Positions 1,636 to 8,257 of a DNA stretch of 8,257 nucleotides are shown in pieces (position 1 is the first letter of the stretch; the number at the start of each line of letters is the position of its first letter). A program made the translations under genes and the position numbers. The stretch comes from Paecilomyces variotii (Eukaryota). The notes beneath the pieces are model-generated. The model worked only from the letters and a program-made list of their open reading frames with translations, made no database searches and was not told the DNA's origin. The stretch lies in the NCBI GenBank assembly GCA_004022145.1, contig RCNU01000063.1; one strand, written 5' to 3'.

Positions 1636-2818
1636 CTCTAAAGCATTTTATTTTACTTATTTTTAAGATTTAAACTTTATAAGTATATTTATTATCTTCT
1701 TTATATTATATTAAATATTTTATCCTAGTATAAGGCCTTATCTTAAATACTTATTTCTTATCTTCTTTAAGTATATAAAAATAGGCTTAATATTTTTATA
1801 CTAAGTGCTCTAGTAAGAGGTTCTTATTTAATATTTTAAAGTATTTCCTTTACTTTATAAGATATTCTCTATAGTATTCTATAGTACTAGTATATTTATT
1901 CCCTTTAAGAATTTATAGAGATATTAGTTTAATCTTTAATTCTTCTTCTTTAGCCTAGGATTTAAAATATTAAATTTCCTATTTTCTATTAATTTATTAA
2001 TATTATAGATAATAATTCTTTAATAAGATATTTTTACTTCCTTTAATAAAGGAGATTATATATTTAAAAGCTTTATTCTTTAATTTAAGTATATAAATAA
2101 ATAGTATTATCTATAATAATAAGATAGTTTATATATTCTTAAATTCTTAATAGCTTTATTAGCTATATATTTATATAAAAAACTCTATTAGTTTTAATAT
2201 ATATAGTTAAAAATCTTTAAAGACTAATTATTTCGCCTTTATTATATAATAAGCTTTATAATAAAAATTTATATTGCTTATAAGCTTAATTACCGCGAGG
2301 TTTAATTTAAAGATAATTTTAAGCTTTATAATATTAATATACCTTAATTGCCTATATAAGAGCTTTAAAGATATTATTAATATAATATTACTTATTAATC
2401 TATTAAGCTTAAGCTATAATATATTTTTATTCTTATATATATATTTAATAATTTAATTAATATTTATATTTAGTAGTTTATTATTCTGCAACTTATATTA
2501 TATTCTATATAAGGCTTTATTTTTAATTATAAAAAATAAATAGTATTTCTATTTAAAAATATAAAGAGTATAAATAAAAATACTATTTATTTTATTATTA
2601 TTAATATTTAAGTTTAATTTAATAATATATTTACCTTTACTTTTTACTAATATATTATTTATATAATTATATTTATATTATTACTTTTCTTTAAATATAA
2701 AGTTCTTATACTTAATAAATTAAAACTTATTATTATATATATTTTATATGCCTTAAAATTTACTATTTACTCTATAAATAGTATAAGTATTATTAATATT
2801 ACTATACTTATAAAGCTA
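1634..2818 (-). pseudogene. copia pol relic: aspartic protease, GAG-pre-integrase zinc finger, integrase core and SH3 domain
   Basis: Literal vs de-RIPed translation: VNSK=VDSG (2770-2759); IYNNKF*F=(M)CNDKSQF; KSKGK and TLYIF=ALYVP-like (protease); LYRQLRY=LHRxLGH (~2359-2339); YKAY=CEAC (2260-2249); IIIDNT=IIVDDA (2120-2103); LKLKNKAF=LKSKDEAF; INRK*E=IDGGxE (~1990-1976); FKS*AKEEELKIKL; IRPYTRIKYLI*YKEDNKYTYKV*I...CFRD=xGPRARIGYLVGYEGDNGHxYKVWI...RSRD (~1741-1634). One frame runs from 2818 to ~2180, with short frameshifts near 2178 and 2100. Confidence 0.88.
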
Positions 2819-2836
2819 TAGAAGTCTTTAGACTAG

Positions 2837-3030
2837 TTATATAGGTAATTCAGTTCAGTTTAGGGGAGAGTTAGACCGCCTATAGCGGGTTTTAGTTTAG
2901 GGCAGGAAAACTATACTTAAACTAAACTATATTCTAGCGGTTCGGTTTAAAACTAAAAAAACTAAAATATTTACTAAGACTGGGCGCTAAACTAACTTAA
3001 GTTAAATTTTTCTTAAACAATTTAGTTTAA
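2837..3030. mobile_element. Probable terminus of a second large mobile element, with short subterminal repeats
   Basis: An abrupt GC-richer island that keeps CA, TG and CG begins where copia homology stops. It has clustered GTTCAG/GTTTAG/GTTCGG units and their complements: CAGTTCAGTTTAGG 2851-2864, TTTTAGTTTAGG 2890-2901, AAACTAAACT 2919-2928, GCGGTTCGGTTT 2937-2947. Confidence 0.55.
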
Positions 3031-3949
3031 ATAATTTATATAGTTTATAGTATTAAAGGTATTAATATTCTATATTATTTTATATTATTATTAAATTTAT
3101 ATCCTTTTAAATCTATAGCTAAAAAATAGTTTAGATATAATATTATTATATTAAATCTAAAAGTATAAAAATAGTCTTTTAAAATATTATTAAATATTAA
3201 TATAGATTTTAAAATAATTATTATAGAAATATATATATATATTTATAAACTATAGTGCTAATAGAGTACTATTAAATAATATATATAATTTATTATAAAA
3301 GCTAAGATTATTAAATTAAAGAATAGATTTTATTTACTATTATTATTCTTAATAAAAAGTAATTTCTAAATTATTTTTTTAATAAGTTAATAGTAAAATC
3401 TATATATAATTAGTAAGTTATAACTTCTATAGAAAATATATAAATTCTATATATTTATAAAACTTATTAAAATTCTAACTTAAGTTTAAATTATTAAAAT
3501 TATATTATTCTTATAGCTATTTTTTTTTATCTAGATATAGTTTTTAAATTAAATATTATTCTCTTATAATAAATAATCCCCTAATTAAGCTATTTAATAT
3601 AGCTATTCTATTATAAATTACAGACACTTATTTTACCTTAATTTAGCTCTATTAATATAATACTATAATAATAAAACTAAGATCTTTTTTCTTATTAATT
3701 TTAAGAAATAATTTTATATTAAAAGAAGAAATTAATATAGTTATTTTTAGTCAGAATCTTATAAATTATAATTCTAAATTATAAGATACTTTTTCTTATT
3801 ATTTAAGAAAGCAATTAAAATAATTCTTTAAATATATTAGAATTATTTATTTTAAATTAAATTAGCTACCTATATTTTTATTAATATACTAAATATAATA
3901 AACTAGATTATTTAGTATTTTTTTACAGTAGATTATAAGTAGAAATATA

Positions 3950-4760
3950 TATTTTATATATTAATATTAGATAATAAAATTTACTAATTTACCTTTTAAG
4001 TAATATTAAGAAAAGAAAGAAAGTAAAAATAAATATAAGGATATCTCTTAATCTTATTAAGCTAAATAAAAAATATAGTAATTTTAGATAAAGTAGCTTT
4101 AAGATTAGTAAAGATATTTTTAGGAATAATTAGATTAATCTTAATAGTAACTATTATAACTTAAGGCTAATATCTTTTTTTTTAAAGGTAAATTAAATAA
4201 GATAGTTTTAAAAAAAAATATTAAGATTTTATAAAGTAATAGTTAAAAAAAATTATAAGTTATTTATTATTATAATAGCTCTAGATATAGAAGGTAGTTT
4301 AAATAGATAATCTAAGTTAGAAAAAAGTATTTTAACTTAAATTAGAATATATTAAAAGGTTATACTTAAAGTATTTAGTATTACTTTAGCTATATTACTA
4401 AATAAACTAATTATTGCCTATATATAACTTAGCCTATAGAAGAATAAGATAAGTAATAAATATTATATATTAATCTTTTAGTTAAGTATACCTAACTAAA
4501 ACCTAAGAATTTAAAGTATCTTTAAGATACTATTATAAGCTACTGAGAAAAAAATATAAGTAATAAGTTATTATAAGATATTACTAATAATAAAAATAAT
4601 AATAAATTAAATATATAATAGACCTACTTATAATTTAATTTAAGTTAAAATTTATAAGTTTAGTCTCTAAAAAATAAATAAGATTTATTTATTTAATTAG
4701 CAGTAATTTTATTAATAATAGTTAATTAGAGTAATAATAGAATAATTAATAAGAGAGCCT
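3950..4760 (+). pseudogene. Unidentified multi-exon gene relic (or 5' exons of the downstream gene)
   Basis: Intron-like segments (e.g. GTAGTT 4294 to ATTAG 4345) separate coding-like stretches such as 4347-4447 and 4482-4629. No recognisable domain; boundaries approximate. Confidence 0.25.
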
Positions 4761-4989
4761 AAAAAGTCTCTAATATTATATACCTATATATATATATATA
4801 ATTTCTTAATTAGGTATAGTCTATATTAGGAGTATATATATTATATTATTTTTTCTTTTATTATATTTATTTCTTTTATTAAATATATTTTTTAATAAAA
4901 AGAATAAATTCTAATCTAGTTAAAATTTAATTAAAGAACTTTAGATAAGAAATAATATATAAACTAGATAATAATTTAACTTAAGTTAG

Positions 4990-7970
4990 ATTATTTTTAA
5001 GAATATAAGGGAAAATTATTATATACTACTATAAGTTACTAACCCTATTATAATTAAAATTCTAACTTAAATTAAAGGCTCTATAACTTTACCTATTAGA
5101 TAAATAGTATAAATAATAAAAATATCTATTAAATAATAAGGTAAACTCTTTAAAATTTTAATATAGAGAATCTAGCTAGAAGTATTAATAAAAAAGACTT
5201 AAGGTTTATAATTATAGTAATTCTATAAAACCTTATTTAAATTTTAACTCTATTTAGATTAATATACTATATAGGCTAAAGGCTTATATAGCTAAGGCTA
5301 AAGTTTTCTTAATAATAAGAGATAATATAATCTATATAAAGCTTAAGAATAAATATCTGGGAATATTATATATAGATATAAAAAAGCTTAAAATATCTTA
5401 AAAAGATATAAAATATAATTAAGATATTAATACTAACTATATTAAGAACTTAAAGAATAAGTTCTATATTAGTATATAAAGATTTAATATTAATATATAA
5501 ATAAAAATAACTCTAAGTATTAAAGATTTTAACTTAGTATTATAGGTATATATAATAGAACTACTAGAACTAGTAAATATTAGTAATATTTATAGTCTCT
5601 TAAGATAGCAGTAGGATAAAGATAGTAATTTTTTTATTTACTTAAAGAAGTAGCTAAAAAGGCTTATATTACTAATATTATAAGCTAAATAATATTATTA
5701 TATAGCTCTTCTAAAGCTATTAATTAAATAGAAAAAAATAGCTATTATTAAAGCTATTAATTATAAAGAAAAGATAATTAAAAAATTATAGGCTAATATA
5801 TATCCTTATTTTAACTTAAATTAGAATTCAGCTAATTAATCTATAAATATATCTCTAGGCTATTAACCTCTATAATAAGGCAATATTATTAGAAATTCTT
5901 ATAGTATTATAATCTAATTATAAAGATATTGCTTATATTAATATTAATAAAGAGTATATATTCTTACTTATTAAAGAGTAAGAAAAGAAACTTATAAACT
6001 AATATAAAGAACTATTAAAAAACTATAAAAAGTTTAAAAATTAAGTACGCCCTATTATTAGTATATTATTTAACTATATAGCTTATACTATAGCCCCTTT
6101 ATATAATAATATTTAGTTATAATATCTGCGGGAGTATTTATAAATAGCTTATAATTACTCTTATTAAAACTATATATTAAGAGAGATAATTATAAATATA
6201 AAGCTAGATTAAGTATATTTAGAGATCTAATTTTAATTTTAATTTTCTAATTTAAATTAGATTTAGATTATAGAGTTTAAGAAGTTTTTTAGCTTTGCTA
6301 AAATAATCTTTATAGATAAATAAAGCAAAGTAATATTAATAAAGAATTAGAGACTAATTATTAAGTATTATTATAATATAAGCAACTATATCTTATATAT
6401 ATTATTCTTTTTTTTGCAGGCAAATTATAAAAATAATAGACTTAAGCTATTTTTAGATTATAAATAATTTAATAAATAATTATTACCTTACTTAAAGATT
6501 TCTATACTATCTCTTAAGAACCCTACTTAATAACTATCTTTCCTTATAGCTCTATTAGATAAAGCATATATATAAATATAGAAGAATATTTTAAAAAATA
6601 GGGAACTTAAGTTCCCCTTATAATAAATTCTAACTTAAATTAAATATAAAAATTAATTATAAACTAATTATTATAAGAACTTATAAATTAATCTTAATAA
6701 TAAAATCAGTCTCCTATTAAAATCTATGCTAAAATATATTATATTCTAATATAATCTAGAATAGTAATATTTTACTATAGCCTTTAAATATTTCTAAAAA
6801 TTCTAGTAAATAAATAAACTTTAATATTTTCTCTTTTATAAGTCTAATAATATATATACTACTAAGAGCTTTATAAAAAAACTTATTAATAAGCTCTATA
6901 AGGACTTCTTATAGACTTAGATAGATCTAAAACATTATATAATAACCTTATTTAACTATAATTAGAATTAATACTAATATCTTTTAACTACTAGAACTAT
7001 TTAATAACCTTTACTTCTAAAATATTAAAGAATAAGATAGTTATAACTAATAGTATATATCTTTTTTATTTTAAGCGGCGCTATTAGGCCTATATTCTCT
7101 ATATAACTTCTAAAATAATCTTACTTAACTTTAAGAATATTATAAGTTAATTTAATAATAAAAACAAGATTATAAGTTTAGACTATTCTAACTTAAATTA
7201 AAATTAATATAATATAAGGTAAATAACTTTCTATCTTTATTGCCTTTAGTAATATTATATAATAAGCCTAATTCTAATATAATAACGCGGTAAAGAACTT
7301 AAAAATCCTAAAAATTAATTAGTATAAGAATAACTTAAAGACCTAATCTAATATTACTAAGGCTCTATAGATATACTAATTTATTAAAAAAAGCATAATT
7401 TATATTATAAAATTTAGCTTCTCTAAGACTAATAATTATAAAAAAGATTTTAAGAATCTTATTAAGATTAAAATATATATATTATTAATTTAACTTAAGT
7501 TAGAAATTAACCTAATTTAAGAGAAATAATATTAGTATTTATAAGCACTAAAAAAGATTACTAATCTTTTAATTAAATAAGATTAGGCTCTAGATATAGA
7601 TAATATAAATAAATATTTACAATGCTTTATGCTAGACTATAATCTTAAAATTAAGAAAAATATATTATTTAAAAGAAGTTATATATACCTCTTTTAACAT
7701 TATTAAACTAACTACTAATAAATAAATGCCCTTATAATAATAATAAGGAATAATATAAGCTAGAGAATTAAAAATAGCTCTAAGCTGTTATTTTTAACTC
7801 CCTGAGAAAGAAATAAAAAATATTAAAAAATTCTACAGGTAAATAGATTAATATATCTATTCTAACTAAAGTTAAAATAAGATTTAATTAAAATTCTAGA
7901 TTAAGATATAAAGACTAATAAAGTAAATAATATACTTTAAAAAAATAATATAGATAATAATAATAAAGGT
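4990..7970 (+). pseudogene. RIP-inactivated multi-intron gene for a ParB/Srx-like domain protein, DUF3723-like (Starship accessory-type)
   Basis: Exon 5258-~5797 has literal KYLGILYIDIKKL (from 5351), then *DINTNYIKNLKNKF...*RFN=RDVDxNHVKNLKNKF...RRFD, then IL*AK*YYYIAL=LQAGQHRxxAL (5681-5710). The next exon has L*AINLYN=LWAVDLYD (5853-5876) and NINKE=DTDGE (5940-5954). This motif order resembles what I recall of DUF3723 N-termini. Candidate introns: 5031-5099, 5217-5257, 5798-5831/5858, 6213-6266, 7839-7899. Gene ends are uncertain. Confidence 0.55.
6601..6616. repeat. Perfect 16-bp palindrome GGGAACTTAAGTTCCC
   Basis: Equals its own reverse complement and shares the AACTTAAGTT centre of the dispersed motif. 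Confidence 0.9.
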
Positions 7971-8257
7971 AAGTTATTTTTCTTATTAATTATATTATTA
8001 AATAGTTATAATAATATTATTATTATAAGTATAAAAATAAGGCTAAGTTTTTAATTTAGGTTTAAATTTTTTAGTTTAGCTTTAGATAAGCTATCTTAAT
8101 AATATTTACTTAATATATAAGAAACTAACTTAAGTTAGAAGTAAAATAATTAAATTTTTTTTTAGACTAATAATATAATCTCTATTTTTAAGTTAAATTA
8201 TTAAGAGTAGTTTTCCTCTAGTAATAAGAACTTATATTATTTAAAACTTATCTTTAA

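Follow-up and report, generated by a model that had tools for sequence, protein, structure and literature searches.

The right-hand part of the analyzed window, a stretch of 8,257 nucleotides from Paecilomyces variotii, carries a dispersed palindrome that is real, strongly enriched, dyad-symmetric, and confined within the window to one multi-copy repeat degraded by repeat-induced point mutation (RIP). The motif can reasonably be read as a candidate site for a dimeric protein, and as a tentative explanation, still short of probable, we propose that it was recognized by a DNA-binding dimer belonging to a transposon-like element that was once active. The element today is a relic in which the reading frame and the partner gene are unrecognizable, and both the protein-binding role of the palindrome and the transposon nature of the element are putative.

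Copies and enrichment of the palindrome

The motif was counted over the whole window. The word TAAYTTAARTTA was found in 11 copies, all at or beyond position 2993, and TAACTTAAGTTA and AACTTAAGTT in 4 and 6 copies, respectively, to the right of 2989, with none of the three words in 1-2989. The pattern AAYTTAARTT occurred 14 times, 13 times on the right and once on the left (an all-A/T instance at 426), and all 23 sites with at most two mismatches from TAACTTAAGTTA were located at or beyond 2993. Together with three further copies, namely TAACTTAAGTTT at 3476-3487 (10-mer intact, left flank ATTC), GAACTTAAGTTC at 6603-6614, and TAACTAAAGTTA at 7863-7874 (one transversion), the 11 strict copies gave a total of 14, in agreement with the initial annotation, which had counted about 15 including transition variants.

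Motif counts and alignments placed TAACTTAAGTTA at 2993-3004, adjoining a GC-richer island, at 4977-4988, where the near-palindrome extends to about 26 bp and forms an 11-bp stem in the DNA fold, and at 7491-7502, at a homology break among genomic copies. The G>A form TAACTTAAATTA was present at 4333-4344 (a member of the 21-nt repeat family D7), 5063-5074, 5812-5823 (21 nt identical with the copy at 4328-4348), 6631-6642 (28 nt past the copy at 6603), and 7189-7200 (also recovered by the repeat search). The copy at 4636-4647 has the C>T form TAATTTAAGTTA, and the copy at 6248-6259, TAATTTAAATTA, has lost both C and G while retaining the flanking C (-2) and G (+11). The variant copy at 6603-6614 lies within GGGAACTTAAGTTCCC, where three flank positions per side are off-consensus and still complementary. 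The perfect 14-bp palindrome at 8125-8138 that had been annotated initially was read directly in the sequence as CTAACTTAAGTTAG.

In 2990-8257 the 11 copies of TAAYTTAARTTA compare with a dinucleotide-shuffle mean of 0.34 (maximum 3), and this count was reached by none of 1000 shuffles and by none of the 500 sequences generated under each of the Markov models of order 2, 3, and 4. For AACTTAAGTT the 6 copies compare with a shuffle mean of 0.07 (maximum 2), and 6 was not reached in 1000 shuffles. The shuffle check that the initial annotation had put forward for both sides thus returned enrichment on the right, whereas the motif count of 0-1 in 1-2989 equals the shuffle expectation; at the right-hand density about 7 copies would be expected in these equally RIPed 2989 nt. 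In an unbiased k-mer count of the right part the palindrome words were the sole C- or G-containing ones among the top 12 10-mers and 12-mers.

The conserved unit measures about 16-20 bp, (A)TTCT-AACTTAAGTT-AGAA(T), and the symmetric flanks recorded earlier are real: around the 10-mer, information content exceeds background between about -5 and +15, which yields (A)(T)TCT-AACTTAAGTT-AGA(A)(T). About 16 bp of the sequence itself, beyond its pairing, is conserved in 13 of the 14 copies. Differences among copies are almost solely C>T or G>A, the direction of RIP; within the 10-mer, two of the 14 copies have C>T at +2, six have G>A at +7, and one has T>A. Half-site matches numbered 30 (7.9 expected), 22 of them inside full palindromes; of the eight outside, three retain a C or G and five are all-A/T.

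Copies recur about every 400 bp (range 28-857 bp) along more than 5 kb, and their spacing is more regular than chance would produce (CV 0.59, P=0.025). The 10-mer starts modulo 3 are distributed 5/4/5, so that a common reading frame is absent. The unit repeated between copies is only about 21 nt long, its surroundings are non-homologous, and the segments between palindromes resemble one another at shuffle level.

RIP state, copy number and extent of the host repeat

Sequences affected by RIP are recognized by a TpA/ApT index above 0.89 and a (CpA+TpG)/(ApC+GpT) index below 1.03. The window has a GC content of 10-19%, RIP-type throughout, with indices of 1.35 and 0.14, respectively, and the dinucleotides CT (530) and AG (542) survive in numbers far above CA (32) and TG (27). 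The stretch is multi-copy in its organism and its copies differ chiefly by transitions (1712 of the 2057 difference places listed for read set X23); by indices, multi-copy status, and transition-type copy differences it is a RIP-mutated repeat. Between 4 and 20 contigs cover each place in X19 and X20, and the depth in X23 is about 270-570, which suggests roughly ten or more diverged copies. At position 4639 a T>C difference was present in 9 of 9 X19 contigs, 11 of 11 X20 contigs, and 234 of 425 raw X23 reads; this C restores TAACTTAAGTTA in the other genomic copies, and the motif therefore predates the amplification of the family.

The initial annotation had recognized the motif solely to the right of an element boundary near 2990. 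The one-sided distribution holds, but the boundary is unsupported by read depth, since depth in the bin 2761-3036 equals that of the bins further right, and the repeat family may therefore begin further left, at about 2750-2850. The GC-richer island at 2840-2990, which keeps some CpA and contains GTTTAGGG twice as well as inverted CTAAACT words, is multi-copy like the remainder (many reads have G2874>A) and may represent the family's less-mutated edge. On the other side the element may extend beyond the window end. Within the window, the long direct terminal repeats and gag/pol genes of an LTR retrotransposon are missing: apart from the 17-nt palindrome, 2990-3600 and 7400-8257 share no direct repeat, and Pfam and PDB searches matched no reverse transcriptase, RNase H, or integrase. 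Searches for an intact relative found none.

Putative function and alternative explanations

The window is a patchwork of RIP-inactivated ascomycete repeats, and the region from about 2750-2990 to the window end belongs to a multi-copy, transposon-like family. Prior to RIP, at least 14 copies of a dyad-symmetric sequence of 16-20 bp were present in this family, and each copy may have been read by a dimer of a sequence-specific DNA-binding protein. Candidates for the binder are a transposase or recombinase of the element itself, an accessory protein, and a recruited host factor; the array of sites would coat, pair, or regulate the element. The pre-RIP form TTCCAACTYRAGTTGGAA proposed initially is compatible with the copies, but TTCTGAC...GTCAGAA or the unchanged TTCTAAC...GTTAGAA fit equally well.

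The reading as dimer sites is favored by enrichment beyond composition, by conservation of the sequence itself with differences in the direction of RIP, by the non-homologous surroundings, absent common frame, and even spacing, and by a motif missing from the left 2989 nt that predates the amplification of a multi-copy family with transition-type differences. It is also favored over element termini, because full palindromes dominate the half-site matches. Against it, neither a binding protein nor a transposase nor any other protein family is recognizable in the element, and an intact relative was not found. Moreover, thirteen identical 16-bp sites in unrelated contexts arise more easily by copying than by selection of point mutations, the complementary changes at three flank positions per arm of the 6603 copy are what a hairpin predicts, some homology breaks at palindrome edges hint at recombination or termini, and the spread over 5 kb differs from the end-clustered arrays of transposase sites.

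Rather doubtful, in our estimation, is the explanation that a tiny palindromic unit spread within the ancestral element before amplification and had no trans-acting partner of its own, either as abutted transposon ends (...TTCTAACT-TA-AGTTAGAA...) or as a mobile palindrome resembling REP sequences or GC clusters. Units of 16-20 bp that are identical across unrelated contexts fit such copying, and the palindrome center can be read as end-TA-end or end-TTAA-end. The genomic copies also break near the motif: 313 raw X23 reads diverge just past 7504, one X20 contig enters non-RIP-like sequence past 7487, the joint 7488>2986 connects two palindromes, and among the 24 loose ends listed of 1828, at least three (4975, 7487, and 7504) of the 10 past 2990 fall within 5 nt of a palindrome edge. 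The segments 2992-3008 and 7487-7503 are exact reverse complements of each other, as expected of termini, but this 17-nt match consists of the palindrome with its usual flanks and is no better than the matches among internal copies. Read depth shows no drop at 2992 or 7504, and a test for a TIR transposon revealed neither a transposase nor a target-site-type flanking duplication beyond the palindromic AT itself. Informative isolated half-sites are just 3 compared with 22 within full palindromes, the stretches separating the palindromes lack the mutual homology that copies of a single small element would share, and the 2989 nt of other RIPed repeats contain no copy.

A structural role, in which a hairpin or cruciform of a nucleic-acid intermediate serves packaging, dimerization, priming, or replication and the fold matters rather than the sequence, appears improbable. 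Its dyad symmetry is perfect, the 6603 copy stays symmetric through three complementary flank changes, and two segments fold comparatively well (4968-4998, z -2.35; 6594-6624, z -1.86); in either case 8 of 200 shuffles folded equally well. However, the sequence itself is conserved in all but one copy, that one being the sole covarying copy, and 4 of the 6 copies tested fold no better than shuffles in their present RIPed state.

Quite improbable is the more specific version of the dimer-site reading according to which the dead RIPed element once bore a dense, even array for loading, coating, or pairing by an element-encoded dimer or tyrosine recombinase. Such an element would be a eukaryotic transposon whose entire body bears a parS-like or oriP-like array, and the literature searched contained no description of this design for fungal elements.

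Sites of tyrosine recombinases consist of inverted arms around a short center, and a symmetric center is atypical of them. The palindrome shares the inverted arms but has a symmetric center, and its use as the core or target site of a recombinase of the Crypton or Starship captain type, with the repeat as a landing pad or rearrangement substrate, seems decidedly unlikely. Homology breaks at palindrome edges would suit such a site. The true target of the Starship Enterprise is a 10-12 bp palindrome, CTACCT||AGGTAG (PMC8092012; PMC11162782), of which the inner ACTT|AAGT of our motif is a transition form, and some Starship families are reported to insert into AT-rich or RIPed transposons (PMC11162782). 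The likeness to Enterprise is, however, at chance level (5 of 6 half-positions with RIP transitions allowed, about 0.07 by arithmetic on base frequencies), a transversion separates the two at the outer position, and Pfam and PDB searches detected no recombinase relic.

Coding potential and the ParB-like alternative

The initial annotation had tentatively paired the sites with an adjacent ParB-like, DUF3723-type protein carrying a GxxR motif (GQHR), loaded onto a parS-like array of a Starship. The site half of this pairing survives, and 14 palindromic copies of 16-20 bp on one element resemble parS in form, whereas the protein half is without support and the pairing as a whole is very unlikely. 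Under a RIP-collapsed codon model, weak coding-like stretches were found on the + strand: the segment 3999-4685 (frame +3) scored 14.7, above the null 95th percentile of 11.6 and below the null maximum of 17.1 (n=200), and yielded no homologue, and the borderline segment 5192-5785 (frame +2) scored 11.3, below that percentile, and had no Pfam match. Six-frame Pfam searches (E≤1) returned no family, hence no ParBc, DUF3723 (PF12520), or DUF3435 (PF11917) signal, as did searches with the best coding-like pieces (E≤10). Six-frame phmmer against PDB (E≤10) gave no ParB chain and just two noise matches (RalBP1, E=0.2; hemolysin BL, E=1.1), and an exhaustive phmmer search of the best coding-like 300 residues (3903-4802, frame +3) against 1.84 billion representatives gave none at E≤0.001.

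A GQHR-like peptide is absent from all frames, also with a RIP-tolerant pattern. De-RIPing could yield G-Q-H-R at 17 places in 2990-8257, none of them with literal Gly and Arg codons; compatible sites are common, and the motif is not diagnostic. Since RIP at a GC content of 15% would erase most protein signal, these negatives, including those for ParBc with GxxR and for DUF3723, are weak, and a ParB-like/DUF3723 gene relic is unsupported, not disproved.

Starships carry a DUF3435 captain tyrosine recombinase at the 5' end, span tens to hundreds of kb with cargo, and occur in low copy number. The Starship label is unsupported for a repeat with roughly ten or more diverged copies by depth and no captain or auxiliary Starship gene detectable in the window, which at 8 kb is too short to show the element size. 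DUF3723 recurs as a Starship auxiliary gene of unknown function (PMC9156397); no paper in the literature searched joins DUF3723 or Starships to ParB.

A compositional artefact of RIP, in which C surviving before T and G surviving after A would leave more Y/R-symmetric words, retains hardly any probability and is refuted at window level by the motif counts, shuffles, and Markov models, the empty left part, and the conserved flanks, even though the C and G of the motif do lie in CpT and ApG contexts, the commonest survivors.

Comparison with known systems

For now, the palindrome is well documented as an odd sequence feature of a dead, RIP-mutated repeat and not as a protein/site system, and it could be used as a diagnostic word in annotating this RIPed repeat family. 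If intact relatives keep the array, a fungal mobile element would have marked its whole length with a dimer-binding palindrome, which could bear on recognition, compaction, silencing, or recombination of large fungal elements and would offer a testable DNA handle composed of a site and its binder.

In bacteria, ParB dimers read parS, a palindrome of about 16 bp of which one replicon or element carries several dispersed copies. The likeness is one of form: here a ParB-like gene is undetectable, the density is about one copy per 400 bp, the host is a RIP-dead multi-copy fungal nuclear repeat, and any sign of an autonomous replicon is absent. The dispersed palindrome does not count as evidence that fungi have a ParB-like system.

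Transposase-binding arrays, such as the 12-bp TnpA motifs of En/Spm, the subterminal hexamers of Ac, and the end sites of Tn7 and Mu, likewise reiterate a short element-specific motif, sometimes in inverted pairs, but stay close to the ends, at distances of up to a few hundred bp, whereas our copies spread over more than 5 kb and neither a transposase nor clear termini were found. Short palindromic units in unrelated contexts are also known from bacterial REP and Correia elements, yeast mitochondrial GC clusters, and Neurospora mitochondrial PstI palindromes; these are intergenic and genome-wide, in contrast to one AT-rich nuclear repeat within the window. Many-copy palindromes of 18-30 bp bound by an element-encoded dimer occur in the family of repeats of EBV oriP (EBNA1) and the baculovirus hr palindromes (IE-1), which form tandem clusters in episomal viruses, unlike the widely spaced copies in a chromosomal repeat described here. 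The Enterprise target (PMC8092012; PMC11162782) is likewise a 12-bp palindrome from a filamentous ascomycete, associated with a tyrosine-recombinase element, and its inner 8 bp match once C>T and G>A are permitted, but it is a single insertion target compared with a 14-copy array, and the likeness is at chance level with an outer transversion.

Composition of the window and counts of the palindrome

The GC content was between 0.10 and 0.19 in each 500-nt bin across the window, and extreme signatures of repeat-induced point mutation (RIP) were found both left and right of position 2990. The window dinucleotides gave a TpA/ApT ratio of 1.35 and a (CpA+TpG)/(ApC+GpT) ratio of 0.14, with 32 CA and 27 TG against 530 CT and 542 AG.

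Motifs were counted separately in the left part (1-2989) and in the right part (2990-8257) of the window. All occurrences of TAACTTAAGTTA (four), TAAYTTAARTTA (11) and AACTTAAGTT (six) were located in the right part, as were 13 of the 14 matches to AAYTTAARTT, the remaining one being an all-A/T copy at 426. Sites with at most two mismatches from the 12-mer numbered 23, every one at 2993 or later. In dinucleotide-preserving shuffles of 2990-8257 TAAYTTAARTTA occurred 0.34 times on average and at most three times, and none of 1000 shuffles had the observed 11 or more; nor was this number attained in any of the 500 simulations run under each Markov model (orders 2, 3, and 4). For AACTTAAGTT the shuffle mean in the same region was 0.07. 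When words of the right part were counted without bias, those with C or G in the top 12 of the 10-mers and of the 12-mers all derived from the palindrome. Since the palindrome words lie beyond the shuffles and are the sole C/G-containing top words, RIP-type composition is no explanation of the motif. The initial annotation had estimated about 15 copies; we counted 14, including three near-variants (3476, 6603, and 7863), and the 14-bp palindrome that it placed at 8125-8138 was present as described.

Anatomy and arrangement of the palindrome

In the alignment of the 14 copies the unit reads (A)(T)TCT-AACTTAAGTT-AGA(A)(T), a palindrome of 16-20 bp. Conservation exceeds background from about -5 to +15 relative to the 10-mer core, which bears out the symmetric flanks noticed initially. 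Within the 10-mer, differences between copies are limited to C>T (2/14), G>A (6/14), and one T>A. In the flanks, C at -2 is retained in eight copies and G at +11 in six, most of the others having T or A. Judged from the alignment, these differences are what RIP would make of one putative ancestral sequence. For the three TA steps, TTCCAAC...GTTGGAA (the earlier guess), TTCTGAC...GTCAGAA, and the unchanged TTCTAAC...GTTAGAA are each compatible with the window as ancestral forms. An origin of the arms from telomere repeats (CCCTAAC>TTCTAAC) is not favored because position -4 is A in six of the 14 copies.

The copy at 6603 deviates in that three flank positions per arm of GGGAACTTAAGTTCCC are swapped by complementary transversions; in no other copy do changes in one arm complement those in the other. 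Two palindrome copies lie 28 nt apart at 6603-6642, the first having GGG/CCC flanks instead of TCT/AGA. Hairpins are weak in the present RIPed state: of six copies that were folded, two clearly outdid their shuffles.

The copies are spaced 28-857 nt apart (mean 395) and more evenly than random (coefficient of variation 0.59 vs. 0.94, P = 0.025). Half-site matches numbered 30 against 7.9 expected, 22 of them within full palindromes, and only three isolated half-sites (4313, 5528, and 8189) were informative. Families recovered by a repeat search surround the palindrome and do not exceed about 21-31 nt. Under a transition-tolerant score the inter-copy segments showed no homology to one another (mean 18.0 and maximum 28.5, vs. 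16.8 and 26.5 when shuffled), and on this comparison an old tandem array whose units had diverged was rejected. The copy start positions fall into all three phases (5/4/5 modulo 3, by our own arithmetic), so the palindrome is not a repeated peptide. The search for target-site duplications around the unit yielded nothing beyond the palindromic AT.

The surrounding repeat family

Among public sequencing runs, small shares came from food-fermentation and grain metagenomes, from which no habitat is deduced. Four public runs of one organism were compared with the window, and the whole window was found to be repeated in the organism of the runs X19 and X20 (compared as contigs) and X23 (compared as raw reads). 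Between four and 20 contigs of X19 and X20 covered each place of the window, and the X23 read depth (both strands summed) was about 270-570 from 2761 to the window end and 75-450 on the left. Among 28,300 reads 25,344 were less than 95% alike, and the X23 differences were mainly transitions (1712 of the 2057 places listed). Provided that the 33 Mb of X19 contigs approximate the genome size, the right part would be present in roughly ten copies at ≥80% identity. Being multi-copy with transition-dominated differences, it belongs to a RIP-degraded multi-copy repeat family, for which an ordinary transposon relic is a better match than a giant low-copy Starship. The element boundary formerly placed near 2990 is not visible in read depth, the depth in bin 2761-3036 being equal to that of the bins to its right.

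Position 4639, within the copy TAATTTAAGTTA, is C in all nine X19 contigs, all 11 X20 contigs, and 234 of 425 X23 reads, as read from the 40 difference rows listed out of 2428. Because other genomic copies have C there, the consensus palindrome was present at this place before the family was amplified.

The strongest homology break of the right part lies at 7504, two bases past the palindrome 7491-7502, where 313 X23 reads match up to this point and then diverge. The reads diverging behind it agree with their consensus at 0.69, the depth of about 400 persists beyond, and most genomic copies depart from the window copy after this palindrome. Behind 7487 one X20 contig passes from the repeat into DNA of non-RIP-like character, one X19 contig begins matching at 4975, two bases ahead of the palindrome at 4977, and one joint connects 7488 to 2986. 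Loose ends no more than 5 nt from the edge of a palindrome made up three of the ten right-part rows among the 24 listed of 1828, so that a gathering of homology breaks at palindrome edges is suggestive only.

The stretches 2992-3008 and 7487-7503 are exact reverse complements of each other, a match amounting to just the palindrome plus its usual flanks. The segment 7505-8257 was rejected as a second copy of 2992-7503, no part of which it matches, and repeat comparison led us to reject LTRs as well as long TIRs joining the start of the right part to the window end.

A GC-richer island at 2840-2990 retains some CpA and contains GTTTAGGG twice and, two to three times, the inverted word CTAAACT, which is telomere-repeat-like (TTAGGG). 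The island is multi-copy like its surroundings, with G2874>A in many reads, and Rfam and tRNA searches found nothing in it; it may be a less-mutated edge of the right-hand repeat family. The left part holds a 94-nt inverted repeat (1179-1272/1557-1650, 77% complementary), whose arms are separated by 284 nt; it is an element of about 470 bp, either a foldback or a small TIR element. A joint of the “opposite strands” kind was recorded there by the read comparison, at 1264/1552. Under a RIP-collapsed codon model the minus strand of 229-2803 is weakly coding-like (frame -2 at 229-2079, score 13.1; frame -1 at 1625-2803, score 11.4; null 95th percentile 11.6), and frame +2 of 1-1000 has few stops as well. 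These left-part stretches had no Pfam match and are probably relics of other transposons.

Search for a partner gene

The initial annotation had tentatively paired the palindrome with a ParB-like, DUF3723-type gene relic bearing a GQHR motif; the searches lent this gene no support. Pfam returned no family for the window translated in six frames, X standing for stops (E ≤ 1), or for five selected pieces (E ≤ 10). In phmmer searches of the PDB with six frames of 2990-8257 (E ≤ 10), the two matches were noise, and none was to a ParB, recombinase, transposase, or reverse transcriptase. A homologue search with frame +3 of 3903-4802 gave 1946 word-sharing candidates, covering lengths of 165-525 only, none of them at E ≤ 10. 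An exhaustive phmmer search with the best coding-like 300 residues against 1.84 billion representatives had no match at E ≤ 0.001. No GQHR-like peptide was present in any frame, also when a RIP-tolerant pattern was used. Undoing RIP could revert 17 right-part sites to G-Q-H-R, none of which keeps literal Gly and Arg codons; a motif of this kind carries no evidential weight. Rfam (E ≤ 1) and tRNA searches had no matches, and neither codon periodicity nor a clear low-stop frame was detected.

The RIP-collapsed codon model gave a modestly significant coding-like stretch at 3999-4685 in frame +3 (score 14.7; null 95th percentile 11.6, maximum 17.1) and a borderline one at 5192-5785 in frame +2 (score 11.3). 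On this modest signal the plus strand may hold a gene relic, to which no family is assigned. The negative protein searches do not prove absence, because at a GC content of 15% most codons are hit.

DUF3723 is described as being of unknown function, with a remarked homology to an SMC-type TIGRFAM (PMC9156397). The literature search found no paper with DUF3723 and ParB together, and the papers co-mentioning ParB, Starship, and fungi concerned, by title and abstract, plasmid partitioning and compost mobile elements. Of the proposed protein/site pair, the site half stands as a real motif exceeding the shuffles, and the protein half is unsupported.

Search for relatives

Searching contigs from metagenomes by back-translation yielded no relative. 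The degenerate 18-mer TTCYRACTTAAGTYRGAA matched seven viral contigs, once each, and at least 120 metagenome stretches. All 127 fetched loci had a composite RIP index of at least 0.68 and at most two strict (12-mer) copies each, and were on these grounds rejected as relatives. In one metagenome 13 contigs (L011, L013, L014, L015, L056, L059, L062, L066, L074, L078, L079, L080, and L087) share a foldback repeat centered on GAGTTCCGACTTAAGTCGGAACTC. It is MITE-like, in contigs of 38-47% GC, with the center GAGTTC(C/T)GACTTAAGTC(G/A)GAACTC and flanking CTAAGAC/GTCTTAG words; this repeat is unrelated to the fungal one and came up solely through its match to the degenerate pattern. A few bacterial-looking contigs carry TTCTAACTTAAGTTAGAA twice. 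The non-RIP contigs L033 (4487-4552) and L067 (2775-2800 and 6096-6121) have TTCTAACTTAAGTTA(G/C)A twice with the same flanks, the copies being 38 nt apart in L033 and adjoining GCGATCGC words in L067; their appearance is that of bacterial repeats, either dispersed or of operator or iteron type. None of the fetched loci is homologous to the window element. Literature matches to the motif string were, by the 15 titles listed of 29, only primers and cloning sites.

Putative function and comparison with known systems

We tentatively regard the palindrome as the predicted recognition site of a sequence-specific dimeric DNA-binding protein, which the once-active element would have possessed. Its dyad symmetry, the conservation of sequence and not of pairing alone, and the prevalence of paired over single half-sites point to such a site, as do its restriction to the family, its even spacing, and its presence before amplification. 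The main alternative, spread of the palindrome by a copy mechanism or its derivation from abutted element ends, is possible if doubtful: identical units in unrelated contexts and the homology breaks at palindrome edges are consistent with it, whereas the lack of isolated half-sites, of homology between the inter-palindrome units, and of duplications argues against it. That the palindrome acts as a structural hairpin is unlikely, the covarying copy at 6603 being the sole pointer. A tyrosine-recombinase site is still less plausible; the architecture and the Enterprise target CTACCT||AGGTAG suggest one, but the likeness to the latter is at chance level. Pairing with a ParB/DUF3723 protein, for which the motif was found and the protein was not, is very improbable, and a compositional artefact, given the shuffles, can be practically discounted.

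A dimeric recognition site remains our preferred reading of a motif that is real and unexplained, within a dead repeat. In the papers searched, no description of a palindrome array of this kind in fungal elements was found. In its array form it resembles parS sets, transposase-site arrays, and viral maintenance repeats; unlike all of them, it extends through a multi-copy fungal repeat that is chromosomal and was killed by RIP, over all 5 kb visible in the window.
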